Origin: an uncultured Planctomycetales bacterium
GTDB taxonomy: Bacteria; Omnitrophota; Gorgyraeia; Gygaellales; Profunditerraquicolaceae
Direction of reading: 5' to 3'
Length of the DNA stretch: 31,030 bases
NCBI GenBank assembly: GCA_964572435.1
Contig: CAZNGC010000001.1
Location: 1 to 31,030, forward strand
The notes below the pieces were generated by a model. It was not told the DNA's origin and searched no databases. It worked only from the letters and a program-made list of their open reading frames with translations. The position numbers and the translations under genes are program-made. Positions 3,934 through 31,030 of this stretch are shown here, piece after piece (position 1 is the stretch's first letter; each line of letters begins with the position of its first letter).

Positions 3934-5049
3934 TTAACGGCCTCCGGATAGCAATTCCATTCTTTTCTCTGCACTCAAACCCGGATAACTCTCTACTGCC
4001 TCGATATTATCCAGGCACCATTTGACTGTTTCATCCATATCGTAATACCGGAATAATCCAAGCCTGCCTATGCTCAAAAGGTTCTTTACGCGCACCAGCC
4101 TGTCCAGATACCGGTCAAAAATTGTCCTGTTCGCCTGCGTATATACGGGGTACATCCTGTTAGCCCCGGACGGGAATTCATACCCGACGATCGAAGAACC
4201 GCCGTCCCACGGTCCGTAACAAATGCTATAATTGCACTTTCTGGTAAAAGCGACATTGCTCTCGGGGTAATTAATACACCCGTATCTATCGTCTTGCCAA
4301 TGCCTCTCATCGAAACAAAAGGTAAAATCTATCCCCCTGTAACCCAGGGCCCCGTAACAAAAATCGAACAGTTCGTCTATCGGGATGGTCGATATGATCA
4401 AATCGTAATCCAGTCCGGGATAATCCTTTATCGCGGAGTTATAACGCACCGGGATGCCTTTTATCATCTCTTCAAACATCTGCTGATAACCGCCAACAGG
4501 CAAACCCTGCCATTGGTCATTAAAATAACCCGCGCCGTCATCTTCCCTGATCTCTATCTTCTTAGGGGCCCATCCGGCGTCCATCTCTTCAGGCGCCACC
4601 CCCCAGAATTTGACGGTATAATTACCGATGAATTTATTATACAAGGTTTCCCCGATCATCGAAACGACGCAAGCTTTAAAATTCGACGTATCCATTCTTT
4701 CCGGAAGCCGGGAAAGTTCCCGGAGAATAATATCCTTCTCCTCAAGGGTATCTATTGTCCTAAGGCTGATCGGATAAGGCAGTATTCTGCCCCCGACGAA
4801 TGTGGCTACGCGATGCAGATAGTTGTTCAATTCGGCAAACCTGCGGATAAACCCCGCGACCGCCCCGTCGCCGGTATGGAAATTATGCGGCCCAAATAAC
4901 TGATACGGCCTGTTTTGATAAAAGGCGCTCTGACAAAGCCCTCCCGGACGGTCTGCTTTCTCATAAACTATTACCCCATGCCCCCTGTCTTTAAGGAGCC
5001 TGGCGATCGTGCAACCGGATAATCCGGCCCCGATAACCGCTATGCGCAT
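3934..5049 (-). CDS. glf: UDP-galactopyranose mutase-like FAD-dependent NDP-sugar mutase
   Basis: GAGLSG dinucleotide-binding motif, GPHNFHT, KFWG, QGLPVGGY, YPV and GRLGLFRYYDMD, all matching Glf/UGM motifs. The exact substrate is uncertain. Confidence 0.8.
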   Translation of the reverse strand: MRIAVIGAGLSGCTIARLLKDRGHGVIVYEKADRPGGLCQSAFYQNRPYQLFGPHNFHTGDGAVAGFIRRFAELNNYLHRVATFVGGRILPYPISLRTIDTLEEKDIILRELSRLPERMDTSNFKACVVSMIGETLYNKFIGNYTVKFWGVAPEEMDAGWAPKKIEIREDDGAGYFNDQWQGLPVGGYQQMFEEMIKGIPVRYNSAIKDYPGLDYDLIISTIPIDELFDFCYGALGYRGIDFTFCFDERHWQDDRYGCINYPESNVAFTRKCNYSICYGPWDGGSSIVGYEFPSGANRMYPVYTQANRTIFDRYLDRLVRVKNLLSIGRLGLFRYYDMDETVKWCLDNIEAVESYPGLSAEKRMELLSGGR

Positions 5050-7434
5050 TTAAATCTTCCCCCCATACGGCCGGCCAAGATCGTTTTCTGTGCCATTTTC
5101 AAAATCAAACAGGTATTCAGGCGGAATGCAGGCCGTCTGCCCCGACCATCCATTCCTATTATAAGCATATCTCCTGGAAACACCCATACCCAATCCTTCA
5201 TATATATAGCCCCGGAACTGCCGGTCGAATTTTTGTATTAGTTTCGCGCAGCTTTTAAGATCATAAGCGAACCTCCATCCGATACCGATACCTAACCCTT
5301 TATAAAGATACCTGTCATAGCTGCCGGACACCCTTTTCAGGAATCCCGGATAATCCTTCAACCCGTGAACCAGCCTCCATCCGGCCTCAATACCAAGACG
5401 TTGATAGCATAAAGGCCTGTATTTGTCGTCTACCCTGTTTACAAGCTTCTCCCATTTAGCGGCATCATAACCGGCCCTGCCTATGCCGAATCCGAACTCG
5501 CCGTACAAGAACCGGTAATATTCCTTGCCCCGGCCCATCCCCGCGTATACCGCACGCACCTGCCTATCTTCCAGCATCCTGGTAAAGCGGAAAAACTTCT
5601 CCGGTTGATCGACCAAAAGGTCGAATAACTCCACCCCCATGCCGGTGTAGATAAACAGCTCATCCTCTTCGGGAAACCTTTTATGGAAATCCATTACAGC
5701 GTATTCCGGATCATAAGAAACTTCCCTGGCCGCTTCCCTGCCGATACCAATATAAAAATATTGCTTCACCGCCGGATCAAGATAACCTTTTAAGCCAACC
5801 ATCCTATCCCTATCGTACTTCAACTCCCTCTCCAGGGCCTCGCCCATCCACTCGTAGGCATAAGGCCAGTAGGCTTTCTCTATTTTATTTATCTCTTTAC
5901 CCAGGTAATTCCGGTAGTCGTTGTCGAAATTCTCCTCGGCATATCCCCAGCCCATCCCGCTATAACAATACCGCCTTTCTTCTCCATCTCTTATCCTGCT
6001 TACAGAATCAACCCAGCGGGATGATCCGTCAAACCTCCAGGCAATCACCCTGCCTAGGTCATAATAATTGTACCCCCTGTAAGCAGCGGAAAACCCCGCC
6101 TTCTCCATGGAGCTCTTGGATATAAAATTTGAATTTGAAACCACGCCCAAGATCAATAAGGCTGCCACGGGAAAAAGCTTCAGTAAGCCAGGCGCGCTTC
6201 TTCGGGAACTCCGATTATTGCCGTAGAGAAATATGGCTATGACCGCAGGAAACAGGAACCCTATAGGGCCAACCTGCCTGTAACGGTATATGCTCGCGTC
6301 ATAAAAATTCACGTTAAACGGCAGACCGGACAAAGCCAGAACAACGCCAAATACCACGAAAAGCGACAACAGGAATAATTCTTTATGGACATCACGCAGC
6401 GAAAATGGAGCCCCCGAAAAAGTGATAAGCCCCCGAAAAAGCGCTACAGCTTCTTTCCGCCTGCGCCATAATATTCCTAAGAAAGAGACTTCGAATACAA
6501 AATAATAAATATGGGAGCAAAACCGGTTTTCCAGCAGCGCACGCGGCTCAAATTTCAGGAATGGATCGGCAAAAGTCAGGGCCCCCGGCACATCAGCGGC
6601 AAGAAAATCATAAAACCTCGTGAAGAAACCGGCCAGGCTGCTGCGCATAAGCCAATAAGAAAAATGTTTCTCGTAAATAACCAAACCCTGGAATGCGTGA
6701 GTGAAATTATAGCAAAACCAAGGGGCAAGCCCGGCCAGAAAAGCCAGGCAGAAGACAATAAACTGCTTGCTGAATATAAACCCTTTGTCGGAAATATACC
6801 AGAACAAAATAATGGTCAATAAGGTCGGCAGGAAGCTGTAATGGAAAAACATCCCGAAACCACAGATAGCCCCAAGGATTGCAGACAGCCGGATGTTTTT
6901 CCCGATACCGGCGGGGGAAAAATACCGGAAAAACAATAAAACGGCTAAAATGGCAAAAAACATAGCCTCATATTGCGCTCCGTAGTTGGAAATGCTTGCC
7001 TTTATCCATCCCGGAGGCAGGAAAATAAAAAGAACGCTTGCACATACGGCTGTTTTATTGTTGAAGAACTTCCTCAAAAATATAAAATTGAGGATGAAAA
7101 TCCCGGTTCCGGCTAACAAGCCGGTTAATTTAAGAGATACCAGCTTCGCGCCGAAAAGAAGAAAGAACGGTACAGCCAGGAGGCCGCTGACCAGCGAGCC
7201 TCCTTCATACCTGCTCCTCTGGTAATCAAAAAACGGCAGTACCGGGCCCGAGACCAGTTCTTTAGCTACATTGCCGCGGTACAGCTCTTCATCCAGACCG
7301 ACCTGATCTATAGCGAAAAACAAAACCATAAGGCGGACTAATAAATATAAAACGGTCAGCCCCGCCAGCCATGCATATTTCCCCCTGATTCCCCGTAACA
7401 ACCACCGAATCAACATGTAAACTTTACCCGGCAT
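5050..7434 (-). CDS. GT-C fold (ArnT/PMT-like, GT39/GT83) membrane glycosyltransferase with a C-terminal helical-repeat domain
   Basis: About 10-12 hydrophobic segments in the N-terminal ~440 aa, a DE motif after TM1 (GLDEELY), and a soluble C-terminus with eight Y-x-(G/x)-[MLI]-G repeats. Confidence 0.75.
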   Translation of the reverse strand: MPGKVYMLIRWLLRGIRGKYAWLAGLTVLYLLVRLMVLFFAIDQVGLDEELYRGNVAKELVSGPVLPFFDYQRSRYEGGSLVSGLLAVPFFLLFGAKLVSLKLTGLLAGTGIFILNFIFLRKFFNNKTAVCASVLFIFLPPGWIKASISNYGAQYEAMFFAILAVLLFFRYFSPAGIGKNIRLSAILGAICGFGMFFHYSFLPTLLTIILFWYISDKGFIFSKQFIVFCLAFLAGLAPWFCYNFTHAFQGLVIYEKHFSYWLMRSSLAGFFTRFYDFLAADVPGALTFADPFLKFEPRALLENRFCSHIYYFVFEVSFLGILWRRRKEAVALFRGLITFSGAPFSLRDVHKELFLLSLFVVFGVVLALSGLPFNVNFYDASIYRYRQVGPIGFLFPAVIAIFLYGNNRSSRRSAPGLLKLFPVAALLILGVVSNSNFISKSSMEKAGFSAAYRGYNYYDLGRVIAWRFDGSSRWVDSVSRIRDGEERRYCYSGMGWGYAEENFDNDYRNYLGKEINKIEKAYWPYAYEWMGEALERELKYDRDRMVGLKGYLDPAVKQYFYIGIGREAAREVSYDPEYAVMDFHKRFPEEDELFIYTGMGVELFDLLVDQPEKFFRFTRMLEDRQVRAVYAGMGRGKEYYRFLYGEFGFGIGRAGYDAAKWEKLVNRVDDKYRPLCYQRLGIEAGWRLVHGLKDYPGFLKRVSGSYDRYLYKGLGIGIGWRFAYDLKSCAKLIQKFDRQFRGYIYEGLGMGVSRRYAYNRNGWSGQTACIPPEYLFDFENGTENDLGRPYGGKI

Positions 7435-27650: not shown

Positions 27651-30600
27651 TTATTTCGTCATCGCGACCGGTTCTCTTGCCTCTATCCTTATCTTCTCCA
27701 GAGATAATTGCATTTGTTGGGCCGTTTTACTGGACTCCAAAAGAGAAAGCATTTCTTTCAAGGACGGCTCCGTAGTCATTACCCTCTCCTCTTGCATCTT
27801 GAGTATATCCGCAATACAGGAAAGAATCTCCTCCATCTCCCTGCCCATTTCATGCCTTAAGCAGCAAGATTGCAGGTATTCTTTGATCCTTTCGCTCGAA
27901 GGAATTATACCGGCCTTAAGCATATTCCTGATCTGGAGCAAGGATTCATCAGGATCGATGTTTAACAAAGAAGCAGACGCAGTTATGCTGCTTAAGGCCG
28001 GTCCAGCCGCTGGCGCCTGCACAGTAACCGGCAACGCGCGGAAATCAATTCCTCCTTTATCTTGCGCGGGAGAAGATGATTCCTCATCTGCAGGCAGACG
28101 GGAGGCCTGAGCCTTGAACCTGACCACAACAATACCCTCTTCATCCTTCCCGTTATCTTCATTTATCGCATCGGCAAAAGGTTCCGCATGGTACTCGCCC
28201 CTCTCGTCATAATAACCGCCTTCGATAAATTCCCAGTCTGCTGATTTAAACAATCTGACTATCCCCGTAGATGCAAGCGGAACTCTATTCTTGATTTCAT
28301 CGAGAGACTCCTGGCTGGCGACCTCCGTAGTAATTGTCTTGCCCGGCGGAAAAACCTTACCCACTTCTTCAAGGATCAACCTGGCAAACCCCCGGTTAAG
28401 ATAAGACTGGTTGGTTATCCTGATGAAGCGGGCGTTGGGGAAATTCCCGGATGTAGTGCTTAACTCGAACATGCCGATATCTTCTCCGCGATCATTCTTC
28501 AACACAACAACTCTGTCCCAACCTTCCCCATCCTTATTCTGAACCTCGAACTTATAATCCTCCCCGTCTTTTCTTACTTGAAGGCCATCCAGTTTTCTCA
28601 AAGACTCGATCATTTGGGTATCTACCGCTGGCGAACTGGAAAGCTCCCCCTCGGCATAAGGCCCGCGCTTACGGGAAAATTCAACATAATCCCTCAAGCC
28701 CCGGATAACCGGCTGCAACTGTTTTTGCATATCCGGGGAATTCTTTTGCGTCAATGTATCTATCTCGTCCAATTCTTTGAGGAATTTATCGAGCATAACT
28801 GCGGAACTCTGCCAAATATCTATAAGCGCGTACCCGTCTTTGGTTATATTGTCGGCATCAAAATTCCTCCCCGTATTTACGGCCGCCTTGCGTAATCTAT
28901 CTATTAAATCTTTATGTGGTGCTTCTGTAAATACTTCAATGAGGCTTGTTTCACCATCATTTGATAAAGGAGAGCTTGCCGCCGGGCTAAACACGCCTTT
29001 TTCCTGCATGAGCATGCGGAAATCAGGGCTGACCGCTAAATACTTAGCTACCTCCGTAGTCCTGTAGGCCGGGGAGAAATCGCTGTCCCTTAAAGAAAAC
29101 AGGGAAATTTCATTCAACCCGTTCCCCTGGCCATTGCCGGACAGATCGGCAAAATTAATAAGCCAGGTTATGTCTATGCTGCGGCCGGAAGAGATCTGCT
29201 TATAAATTTGCTTTCTGGCATCTCTTAACGTATCCCCCTTGGCGCTCCAAATGATATTTTCGTGCGTGGCGTAATCCTTGGCATCAAGGACTCCGTAATC
29301 CGCCGTAATCACAAAACCTCTCTTAAGAGCCCTGGCGACCTGTTTTGACCAAACAGACAGATACGGGCTGAAGGGGACTTCCTGCCCCTCGTCTACAGAA
29401 GTAAGCCCCTGGACATAATCCTTCATCTCCTGGGTCGAAAGCTCTCCCAGCTCTTCCATAAAAGAACCGTCTTTGAGGCTGACAAAGACCTCGCGGAACT
29501 GGCCGTCCTGCTTTCTGATGATATGCACCGGGAAAGCATCCACCAATTCATTTGAAATAAACACCCCCTGGATCCCCTCTATCCCCTCTAAATCCTTCCA
29601 CTCTACCTTGTCCGGGAAAGTTTCTACGCTTTTAGCCTGTATCGCTTTTAAATGCTCGCTTACATCAACAATTATATATTTAAGATTTTTATACAAGTCT
29701 TTCGCCCTGGGTTCCTTGCTTAGATACTCGAGTATATTCTTTGCCAGGGTCCCCCTGCCGGCGCCCATCTCGACTATCCGAAAATCCGAAGGCTCGCCCA
29801 TTATCGACCACATATCCAGCAACTGGCTGGCCATAGCGTTGCCGAATTCGGCGTGTTCGGAGTCCGTGTCGAAATCCCTGGTTATATTCACAAACCTGGC
29901 GTAATAACCATAATCATTGTCATATAGCGCTGTTTGCATGAAATCAGCATAGCTGATCCTCCCTCCTGCGCCCTCTATCTGTTGTGTTATCTTTGCCGGC
30001 AAACCGGGGGCTTGGGCCCCTGATGTTTCGTCAACAGGCGAACTGGATTTAGCATTGATCATTACAAAATTATTAAACGGCATAGCATGAATAACGAAAC
30101 CTGCGGAAGTAAAGACCTCGGTGAATGTGCTGCTGTCGGTAGCCGGCCCCGTAGAAATCAACGCTGCCCCGCCGTCTTTTAATACCCGTTTTATCTCTTT
30201 CGCCGCTCGGTTATAAAAATCTATGAGATTACTCGAACCGTTCTTCTGCATCTCCGCCAGATCGAACATCTCCGGATTAAATAAACCTATGCTTATCACG
30301 GTATCGAATTCATTGTCCTTAAATGGCATATCCTGCACAACCCCCGGGACAAATTCCCCCCGGCCGGCAAATTTCTGCGTCAGCCCGGGATGAGGATCCA
30401 AACCTGTTATATCTTTCCCTTGAGCTGAAAGATAAGTCGTTATATTCTCATTCCTCAATTCCCCGGTAAAGGAATTGGTCTCCATGCCGATATTAAGAAT
30501 CTTTCCTGTGAGCAAGCTATCGGCTGATATCCCTATGGGATATACCTTGATAAAATCCAGCATAGTCTCCAGGGAAGCGGCATGCACGGAATACCCGCTG

Positions 30601-31030
30601 TCTCCCAAAGGAGAGCTAGAGGATACCGCATCCCCTAGATTGATTATCCCCCCCGGCGCAATCAATTTGAAATATTTCAGGTCTTCTCCGCGCATCGGAA
30701 GATCCATTCTGATAACAAAGAAATCATAACCGGTTACCACCCCGTCCCGGACGTGGTTCCTGATGATAAAATCCTTTCCGGAAACCAACCCGTGGTCTTT
30801 TATGAAAGCGTCTTTATCGAATAAAAGCAGCACCTCGGTCCGATCCGGGCTTATCGCATAGCTATCACCGCTTTTAGCGATCTCGAAATAATTCCCCTTG
30901 CCTAAATTATTTATTTCTCCCTGGATCATCCTGCCGCTGGCGAGCATCCCCAGGAAATTATCTATGGTAGTCCCGAGGATCACTATTTCTTTCCCCTTGG
31001 AGGTAAGCTCCTCGACCTTCTGCGCTAATT
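27651..31030 (-). CDS. C-terminal >=1125 aa of a large modular multi-enzyme protein (SSP-linked modules: unknown, class I SAM-MTase, MidA/NDUFAF7-like MTase, helical unknown, GNAT, GGIDF C-terminal domain); 5' end outside the window
   Basis: The frame stays open upstream of the ORF-track GTG 30983 to the window edge (LAQKVEELTSKGKEI-V). Motifs: DMPFKDNEFDTVIS/EIKRVLKDGG; ISYADFMQTALY..GYY, IVEMGAGRGTLA, SNELVDAFPVH, ITADYG; SYLNRGFARLILE. Confidence 0.9.
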   Translation of the reverse strand, partial: LAQKVEELTSKGKEIVILGTTIDNFLGMLASGRMIQGEINNLGKGNYFEIAKSGDSYAISPDRTEVLLLFDKDAFIKDHGLVSGKDFIIRNHVRDGVVTGYDFFVIRMDLPMRGEDLKYFKLIAPGGIINLGDAVSSSSPLGDSGYSVHAASLETMLDFIKVYPIGISADSLLTGKILNIGMETNSFTGELRNENITTYLSAQGKDITGLDPHPGLTQKFAGRGEFVPGVVQDMPFKDNEFDTVISIGLFNPEMFDLAEMQKNGSSNLIDFYNRAAKEIKRVLKDGGAALISTGPATDSSTFTEVFTSAGFVIHAMPFNNFVMINAKSSSPVDETSGAQAPGLPAKITQQIEGAGGRISYADFMQTALYDNDYGYYARFVNITRDFDTDSEHAEFGNAMASQLLDMWSIMGEPSDFRIVEMGAGRGTLAKNILEYLSKEPRAKDLYKNLKYIIVDVSEHLKAIQAKSVETFPDKVEWKDLEGIEGIQGVFISNELVDAFPVHIIRKQDGQFREVFVSLKDGSFMEELGELSTQEMKDYVQGLTSVDEGQEVPFSPYLSVWSKQVARALKRGFVITADYGVLDAKDYATHENIIWSAKGDTLRDARKQIYKQISSGRSIDITWLINFADLSGNGQGNGLNEISLFSLRDSDFSPAYRTTEVAKYLAVSPDFRMLMQEKGVFSPAASSPLSNDGETSLIEVFTEAPHKDLIDRLRKAAVNTGRNFDADNITKDGYALIDIWQSSAVMLDKFLKELDEIDTLTQKNSPDMQKQLQPVIRGLRDYVEFSRKRGPYAEGELSSSPAVDTQMIESLRKLDGLQVRKDGEDYKFEVQNKDGEGWDRVVVLKNDRGEDIGMFELSTTSGNFPNARFIRITNQSYLNRGFARLILEEVGKVFPPGKTITTEVASQESLDEIKNRVPLASTGIVRLFKSADWEFIEGGYYDERGEYHAEPFADAINEDNGKDEEGIVVVRFKAQASRLPADEESSSPAQDKGGIDFRALPVTVQAPAAGPALSSITASASLLNIDPDESLLQIRNMLKAGIIPSSERIKEYLQSCCLRHEMGREMEEILSCIADILKMQEERVMTTEPSLKEMLSLLESSKTAQQMQLSLEKIRIEAREPVAMTK

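Follow-up and report, generated by a model that had tools for sequence, protein, structure and literature searches.

The Locus and Its Giant Gene

The 31,030-nucleotide stretch of DNA analysed here (the window) is the entire contig CAZNGC010000001.1 (C1) of assembly GCA_964572435.1, an Omnitrophota genome of 1.38 Mb in 204 contigs (93% complete) whose source sample is an anaerobic digester metagenome. At its far end, on the minus strand, lies the 3′ part of a giant gene whose product consists of unrelated modules strung together in one frame and punctuated by a short recurring motif, [A/S]SSP followed by a hydrophobic residue. This motif lies at the joints between modules, and it is there that modules are inserted, deleted or replaced among relatives; we are highly confident of this architecture and of the junction role of the motif.

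The open reading frame (ORF) at 27651-31028(-) has no start codon within the window. The start of a second contig of the assembly (C37) overlaps the window's final 101 bases with a single mismatch, at 30976, and the two contigs, once joined, give a single frame of 2,575 codons. The gene order across C37 and the window (PheT, MgsA, EF-G, cyclophilin, the giant gene, UvrD, DUF5981, NifU, 5-FTHF cyclo-ligase, RNase Y, YmdB, GH39 and XseA) is also that of a relative's unbroken 228-kb contig (L122), and the join is confirmed by this synteny. An earlier note on this DNA had stated that the ORF runs beyond the window, and the overlap, the joined 2,575-amino-acid (aa) frame and the synteny all agree with it. 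The A/T difference at 30976 is a population variant, contigs of three other public runs carrying T, the C37 allele; the assembly break between C1 and C37 was probably caused by strain variation. Cut at its motifs, the protein falls into modules A to H, of which the following features were placed (SAM, S-adenosyl-L-methionine):

27651-31030, minus strand: C-terminal 1,125 codons and stop of the 2,575-codon gene (translation, contig join, synteny with L122)
C37:102-4449: 5′ part of the gene, 1,450 codons, with signal peptide, head domain and module B (contig join)
30609-30623, minus strand: junction motif SSSSP, then L, closing module C, which begins on C37 (translation, motif count)
30036-30608, minus strand: module D, 191 aa, class I SAM methyltransferase, with Methyltransf_11 at 30159-30443 (Pfam, homology blocks)
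30036-30047, minus strand: junction motif SSSP closing module D, then V
28968-30035, minus strand: module E, 356 aa, MidA/NDUFAF7-type methyltransferase, with Methyltransf_28 at 29115-29834 (Pfam, homology blocks)
28968-28979, minus strand: junction motif ASSP closing module E, then L
28629-28967, minus strand: module F, 113 aa, without family match (its homolog in P0009 sits between two motifs)
28629-28640, minus strand: junction motif SSSP closing module F, then A
28068-28628, minus strand: module G, 187 aa, possible GNAT, unconfirmed (weak language-model leads)
28068-28079, minus strand: junction motif SSSP closing module G, then A
27654-28067, minus strand: conserved C-terminal tail, 138 aa (tail homologues, model)
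28029-28055, minus strand: GGIDFRALP segment of the tail
about 27687-27959, minus strand: five-helix bundle of the tail with a conserved Cys, after a variable spacer

In the translation of window 27654-31028(-), the five motifs (SSSSP at residues 136-140, SSSP at 328-331, ASSP at 684-687, SSSP at 797-800 and SSSP at 984-987) stand exactly at the nucleotide positions first reported for them in the earlier note, the residue numbers of which had been counted from the GTG at 30983. The class I SAM methyltransferase and the MidA/NDUFAF7-type methyltransferase that had been recognised there are borne out by Pfam (Methyltransf_11, residues 196-290, E 4e-9; Methyltransf_28, residues 399-638, E 1e-47). 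The GNAT assignment of module G is unconfirmed: residues 801-983 have no Pfam or PDB sequence match, and the leads given by a language model are weak. Neither Pfam nor NCBIfam holds a family for the head, the tail, module F or module G. In the part encoded on C37, a HATPase_c domain ends 2 aa before the SSSSP at 1335, and a weak, sub-threshold Prok-JAB match (E 0.011) starts after the first motif.

A Pentapeptide at Module Borders

The full protein contains 7 SSP, 6 SSSP and 3 SSSSP, where its composition predicts 0.65 SSP and 0.05 SSSP. Across the genome, the 11 ORFs of at least 1,000 aa contain 25 copies of [AS]SSP[VLIA] where 0.20 are expected (about 120-fold), and the 2,014 ORFs of 150-999 aa contain 14 where 5.8 are expected, three of these 14 belonging to a short family member and a contig-end fragment; besides C1 and C37, the carriers are giant ORF fragments on C55, C2, C45, C91 and C102. 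Family-wide word counts, made on the 150 best tail-bearing public proteins, give the same picture for SSP (278 observed vs 39 expected, 7-fold), ASSP (128 vs 3.1, 42-fold) and SSPV (94 vs 2.3, 41-fold), and in these proteins Pro is followed by V, L, I or A at 85% of the sites and by K at none. A chance origin of the motif count is thus excluded. The profile of 326 sites reads [A 41%, S 25%, V 13%]-S-S-P-[V 40%, L 24%, I 20%, A 13%], and because the flanks (-9 to -2 and +2 to +9) all remain within about 1-3 fold of background, the motif is a discrete pentapeptide and not part of a low-complexity linker. A passive linker would not need such precision of enrichment and shape.

Several lines of evidence place this pentapeptide at the borders of modules. 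The Methyltransf_11 and Methyltransf_28 modules each occupy one inter-motif interval, and an AlphaFold model of the head predicts disorder ahead of the first motif. A full RpiB (profile positions 1-138 of 138) is enclosed in the C2 ORF between SSSPV and VSSPV, and this interval is as long as stand-alone RpiB proteins (142-150 aa), which match 90-96% of the module's length. A transaldolase on C45 (profile 1-283 of 285) stops 11 aa before the motif; HATPase_c, a methyltransferase, EamA and an M23 peptidase occupy one interval apiece on C55, as do a GNAT, a methyltransferase and a metallophosphatase in the relative P0123. A test independent of Pfam was provided by all-against-all BLAST of 113 family proteins, which yielded 571 internal homology blocks: 125 of these start, and 147 end, at most 10 aa from a motif, while 117 blocks span a motif as against 189 +/- 38 (minimum 122) with randomised motif positions. 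That the motifs stand at the boundaries of unrelated modules, as proposed from the window alone, accordingly holds for the full protein and its relatives, by Pfam ends and BLAST blocks alike, and the units between junctions, judged by profile coverage and length, equal complete proteins. Note that the same genome contains a separate class of giant ORF: the whole contig C62 (L041, 2-7198(-)) is one open frame with 2,399 aa of HEAT repeats and zero junction motifs.

The third codon positions of the motif vary, and its +1 residue comes from four different codon families. Since the amino acids are kept while codons and flanks vary, the motif is probably under protein-level selection, and is in that case presumably read by something. 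We lean slightly towards the view that this recognition is post-translational, be it through cleavage, O-glycosylation or docking.

A Family With Fixed Ends

The giant gene belongs to a very large family, restricted to Omnitrophota, of mosaic proteins predicted to be exported by the Sec route, in which variable modules are enclosed between a fixed head and a fixed tail; the strength of our conviction on this architecture, junctions included, is high. The head (about 315 aa with the signal peptide) has the conserved blocks FWVNLRPD, TRPWIVP and LRQVYYSLILAQWFK. Of 20 full ORFs of relatives, 19 are 5′-complete with a like signal peptide, and 18 were aligned with the head domain of the joined ORF at 43-68% identity (mean column identity 49%). 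When species-representative genomes were searched with the head alignment, 432 loci were obtained, nearly all of them labelled Candidatus Omnitrophota. The last 151 residues, used as a tail query, matched at least 989 representatives of 50%-identity clusters (E <= 0.001); in the best 150 of these 989 the tail is always at the extreme C-terminus, and those proteins range from 120 to 6,439 aa, family members reaching up to 6,458 aa. Among 400 other genomes of the phylum, the tail was present in 44 of the 60 of the same taxonomic family and in only 5 elsewhere, the copy number in a single genome reaching nine or more.

Within this genome the head is also found on C45 and C47 and the tail on C45. 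The C45 paralog has the same head, linker and tail and carries a transaldolase module as cargo, so that paralogs with other cargo, which the earlier note had suggested looking for, do occur (C47 shows the head only). The 784-aa ORF on the minus strand of C47 is tail-less: its signal peptide and head lead to a single SSSP, immediately behind which come a transmembrane helix and a coiled-coil-like region.

Neither end resembles a known structure. In the AlphaFold model of the head (pLDDT, the predicted local distance difference test, 66 overall and 80-90 in the core), residues 24-310 are folded and the chain is disordered from 310 to the first SSSSP; compared with the PDB, it gave no significant fold (Foldseek best E 0.25; VIA-align wide best Z 3.6). 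The tail model consists of the unstructured GGIDFRALP segment, the spacer and the five-helix bundle, and gave no significant fold against the PDB either (best E 0.7). These near-invariant ends without a recognised fold would suit a motif that serves as a tag, bound by the tail bundle, the head, a chaperone or a cyclophilin so as to organise, export or fold the chain, and in both this genome and the syntenic relative the giant gene is immediately preceded by a cyclophilin gene. We regard such a docking or folding role as very improbable, given that P0123 does not lie beside a cyclophilin gene and that 28 of 92 full-length members possess head and tail but no motif.

The genes that neighbour this gene, P0123 and the C2 and C45 genes are housekeeping genes. 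The cyclophilin-type prolyl isomerase gene mentioned above lies on C37 (L003) at 4740-5279(-), has the same position in L122 and does not adjoin the family member P0123; its position may reflect a link to the proline-containing junction, or simply coincidence. Further upstream, the EF-G gene on C37 (L003, 5276-8353(-)) encodes 1,025 aa with the GTPase domain starting at residue 332, and thus has an N-terminal extension of about 330 aa; its counterpart in the syntenic relative is likewise long (1,041 aa).

Cassette Turnover and the DNA of the Junctions

Comparison with relatives shows that the modules are exchanged as units. In P0003, module D stands directly before G and H; P0082 (960 aa) contains only A, an E-like module as its sole cargo, and H; and in P0009, modules C or F are found among different neighbours. 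In all three, the ends of the matches lie a few residues from motifs. A further comparison is that with P0012 (3,371 aa), the ortholog at the syntenic locus, whose flanking UvrD and cyclophilin are 80% and 83% identical to those of the present genome and which differs from this protein by four module-scale changes:

Change 1: a two-module insertion, between the first motif and module B, with the motif on both sides
Change 2: an indel within module B, about 358 aa long, where a degenerate SSSA stands
Change 3: one additional module between D and E, with the motif on both sides
Change 4: replacement of F and G by two unrelated modules, with the motif on both sides

The motif therefore tracks the boundaries, and module order varies among relatives, both in line with the cassette arrangement that had been envisaged. 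Contigs from public runs that cover the gene (low-coverage DNA and RNA) contained no module-skipping joints and no cassette variants.

The turnover itself also raises the question of whether the motif is a footprint of gene assembly, that is, a linker copied along with the cassettes and tolerated as a flexible joint, of which only in-frame survivors are seen. It is in this sense that three of the four ortholog indels or replacements are motif-bounded and that degenerate copies exist, such as the SSSA at the border of the internal indel of module B. The serine codons of the motif point in the same direction. In this genome the first Ser is encoded by AGY in 20 of 25 motifs, vs 35% of Ser codons (p = 5e-6), and the second by TCN in 24 of 25, vs 65% (p = 5e-4), with TCG over-used at this second Ser; in 20 relatives, AGY then TCN is found in 41 of 75 motifs vs 64 of 361 other Ser-Ser pairs (p = 3e-10). 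Such a bias is what common descent predicts: it fits junctions derived from one another, or a constraint on DNA or RNA, and does not fit repeated independent invention. Moreover, the motif is often lost at homologous junctions and is missing from the 28 motif-less members.

Against this explanation stands the uneven conservation of the motif. A neutral scar should decay evenly, yet S-S-P and the hydrophobic +1 residue are kept while third positions and flanks vary, and the motif occurs across genera in which the tails are only 30-50% identical. Furthermore, no longer shared DNA was found around the junctions, and the shared part of only about 11-14 nt falls short of what homologous recombination or the known site-specific systems require; window junctions 1/3 and 2/4 show 11-nt identities which, by estimate, do not go appreciably beyond what codon bias predicts. 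Taken together, an origin of the motif as a mere footprint of assembly appears unlikely, although credible.

Site-specific recombination at the junction was considered separately and ruled out, the shared DNA being no longer than the codons of the pentapeptide (Ser codon bias aside). A 2A-like translational skip was likewise ruled out, as the 10 residues before the motif are not conserved; to our knowledge, no such mechanism operates on bacterial ribosomes. The junction DNA pattern KCNAGYTCNCCNVTN, counted per family genome, was too noisy for phylogenetic profiling of a co-occurring protease or glycosyltransferase, and the count of one genome stemmed from an unrelated repeat. In genome G057 of the same family, the 14-mer GCAAGCTCGCCCCT occurs at more than 30 places, on both strands and many contigs, and looks like a dispersed repeat that merely mimics the junction DNA pattern.

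Origin of the Cargo

The cargo is functionally diverse: it includes RpiB, transaldolase and ROK kinase, the transporters EamA and ThrE, and the M23 peptidase, so that soluble enzymes, polytopic transporters and a peptidase are mixed within one frame. The earlier description of the cargo as protein- or nucleic-acid-modifying enzymes was consequently too narrow.

RpiB gives an indication of where a module may come from. In the 54 other family genomes with a match it is found exclusively as a stand-alone frame of 152-187 aa, and the present genome has a stand-alone RpiB on C63 and a second, complete copy within the C2 giant ORF (L037, 4736-5194(-)). The C2 module is 45% identical to the genome's own C63 protein and 55-62% identical to stand-alone RpiB proteins of 140-164 aa, the few source-named matches being from Lachnospiraceae, Delongbacteria and Deferribacterales. 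Because it is closer to RpiB of Firmicutes and Delongbacteria than to the resident copy, the module was probably captured as a whole, foreign gene.

Additional clues come from canonical twin-arginine (Tat) signal peptides, which lie 1-10 residues past the motif in four proteins, at C55 (L036) about 6915-7000(+), in front of the M23 module, and at P0006:687, P0090:437 and P0022:1015. The M23 module behind such a signal had no homolog at E <= 1e-10. TatC was found neither in this genome (93% complete) nor, this one included, in 51 of the 61 family genomes searched, so no working role in the producer can be claimed for these signals. At the least, the internal Tat-type signals show that modules were taken up with their own N-termini; they can also be read as hints of free N-termini.

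Export and Fate of the Chain

The N-terminus of the protein (a basic start, a 12-residue hydrophobic core and G-F-A then Q) reads as a Sec-type signal peptide, and beyond it no other hydrophobic or transmembrane segment is found in the 2,575 aa. It follows from this predicted signal peptide that the protein would be exported. In such a setting the motif serines could be O-glycosylated or otherwise modified after Sec export, which would stiffen the linkers and shield them from proteases. The Sec-type signal peptide and the lack of a transmembrane segment suit this possibility, as do the Ser-rich, Pro-containing motif with its hydrophobic +1 residue, the exposed segments in which it lies, the dispensability of single sites and a glycan-synthesis cluster 17 kb off in the window (GT2, UDP-galactopyranose mutase, radical SAM enzymes and a 794-aa protein). 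However, about 15 housekeeping genes separate this cluster from the giant gene, no oligosaccharyltransferase came to light, the motif departs from the Bacteroidota sequon D-[ST]-[AILVMT], and cargo that depends on SAM or ATP fits poorly outside the cytoplasm, where it has no obvious use. We thus deem modification of the serines improbable. The 794-aa ORF of the cluster (window 5050-7434(-)) has no Pfam match at E <= 0.001; it had earlier been taken for a GT-C transferase.

The reading that we put first, tentatively and with some doubt, is that an endopeptidase cuts the precursor at the motif, giving module-sized products in the manner of a polyprotein; it is a reasonable possibility, if not one that we would count upon. 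A bolder version, held a little less firmly, is that these ORFs encode true bacterial polyproteins, built by in-frame capture of whole genes and cut at [A/S]SSP[V/L/I] junctions. According to this scheme, whole genes, some of them foreign, would be captured in frame as modules, an enzyme still to be found would cut the junctions, and one exported or membrane-targeted precursor would give rise to many independent proteins. Delivery of the cargo to a host or prey is pure conjecture.

Several observations weigh against cleavage at the motif. First, the 28 full-length members without any motif copy (out of 92) contain no substitute short word that could be found. Secondly, where two family proteins below 80% identity align through a junction, only about 30-55% of the partners have a full motif no more than 16 residues away, far above the 2% of a random-position control; since homologous junctions often lose it, a single motif site is dispensable. 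Thirdly, no candidate protease came to light: when 17 motif-rich members (43,000 residues) were surveyed with Pfam, the only families returned were HATPase_c, methyltransferases, metallophosphatase, Fic, DnaJ and CrtO, no protease domain recurred, and no protease adjoins this gene, P0123 or the C2 and C45 genes. Proline beside the scissile bond is, in addition, disfavoured by many endopeptidases. Lastly, the internal Tat-type signals may have come in as relics with captured genes and not be N-termini in use, and the Ser codon bias described above needs no biochemical role.

Comparison With Known Systems

Short Ser/Pro segments between exported modules are also known from the glycosylated Pro/Ser/Thr linkers of secreted glycoside hydrolases and cellulosomal scaffoldins, but those linkers are long, variable and of low complexity, whereas the junction described here is a fixed pentapeptide with ordinary flanks. 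It differs as well from the Bacteroidota O-glycosylation sequon D-[ST]-[AILVMT] in that the -1 position is occupied by A, S or V and that Pro precedes the hydrophobic residue.

With the viral polyproteins of picornaviruses and potyviruses, the family shares the presence of several complete proteins per frame and a short, repeated, sequence-defined junction. Differently from these viruses, no protease is encoded in cis, many members lack the junction motif, the genes reside in a cellular, chromosomal context among housekeeping neighbours, and cleavage is here only a candidate. The MARTX toxins of Vibrio and relatives, to which the earlier note had drawn an analogy, resemble the family in architecture: conserved ends bracket a strain-variable string of effectors that are exchanged by recombination and joined by short linkers. 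Beyond architecture the analogy fails, since Pfam reveals no RTX or glycine-rich repeats here and no Peptidase_C80/cysteine protease domain in this protein or in 17 relatives, and an N-terminal Sec-type signal peptide takes the place of the C-terminal type I secretion signal. In addition, the junction is SSP-hydrophobic and not Leu-X as in MARTX, and the cargo includes metabolic enzymes and transporters.

The closest counterparts are the giant multi-enzyme proteins of the Omnitrophota themselves, a hallmark oddity of the phylum for which the literature asks whether the chain works whole or is cleaved, and at which points. Two preprints describe such proteins and suspect that they are cleaved: cleavage has been proposed for proteins of more than 30,000 aa, the cleavage points being unknown (West-Roberts et al., 2023, bioRxiv 10.1101/2023.11.21.568195), and a 2026 preprint distinguishes a class called 'multi-enzyme metabolic cluster', with a catalogue threshold of at least 10,000 aa, and discards internal signal-peptide calls as artefacts (bioRxiv 10.64898/2026.06.07.730766). 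In both preprints the words 'linker', 'SSP' and 'polyprotein' have zero occurrences, and the junction motif, head and tail go unmentioned; 'motif' appears in one reference title in 2023 and never in 2026. A literature search for the motif strings and GGIDF returned only unrelated eukaryotic matches. As far as this literature was searched, the protein class is therefore published, and its junction punctuation and the head-tail subfamily are not.

The motif at the joints provides the only concrete candidate cut sites so far for such proteins. As the junction recurs across hundreds of proteins, it designates exact residues for proteomics and mutation, and it supplies a criterion by which these proteins can be divided before their structures are predicted. 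The rapid exchange of cassettes between close relatives bears on how these host-dependent bacteria acquire and deploy enzymes and, if true, the polyprotein reading would describe a protein-level operon whose cassettes turn over in an integron-like way.

The protein described here differs from the published giants in its length of 2,575 aa, far below the 10,000-aa cut-off, and in the Tat-type signals that directly follow junctions in its family. It shares with them the phylum, the N-terminal signal peptide and the tiling, in one frame, of methyltransferases, HATPase_c, GNAT, ROK kinases and sugar-metabolism enzymes, and the family thus presents the same building principle, as head, cargo and tail, at an experimentally manageable size of 1-6 kaa.

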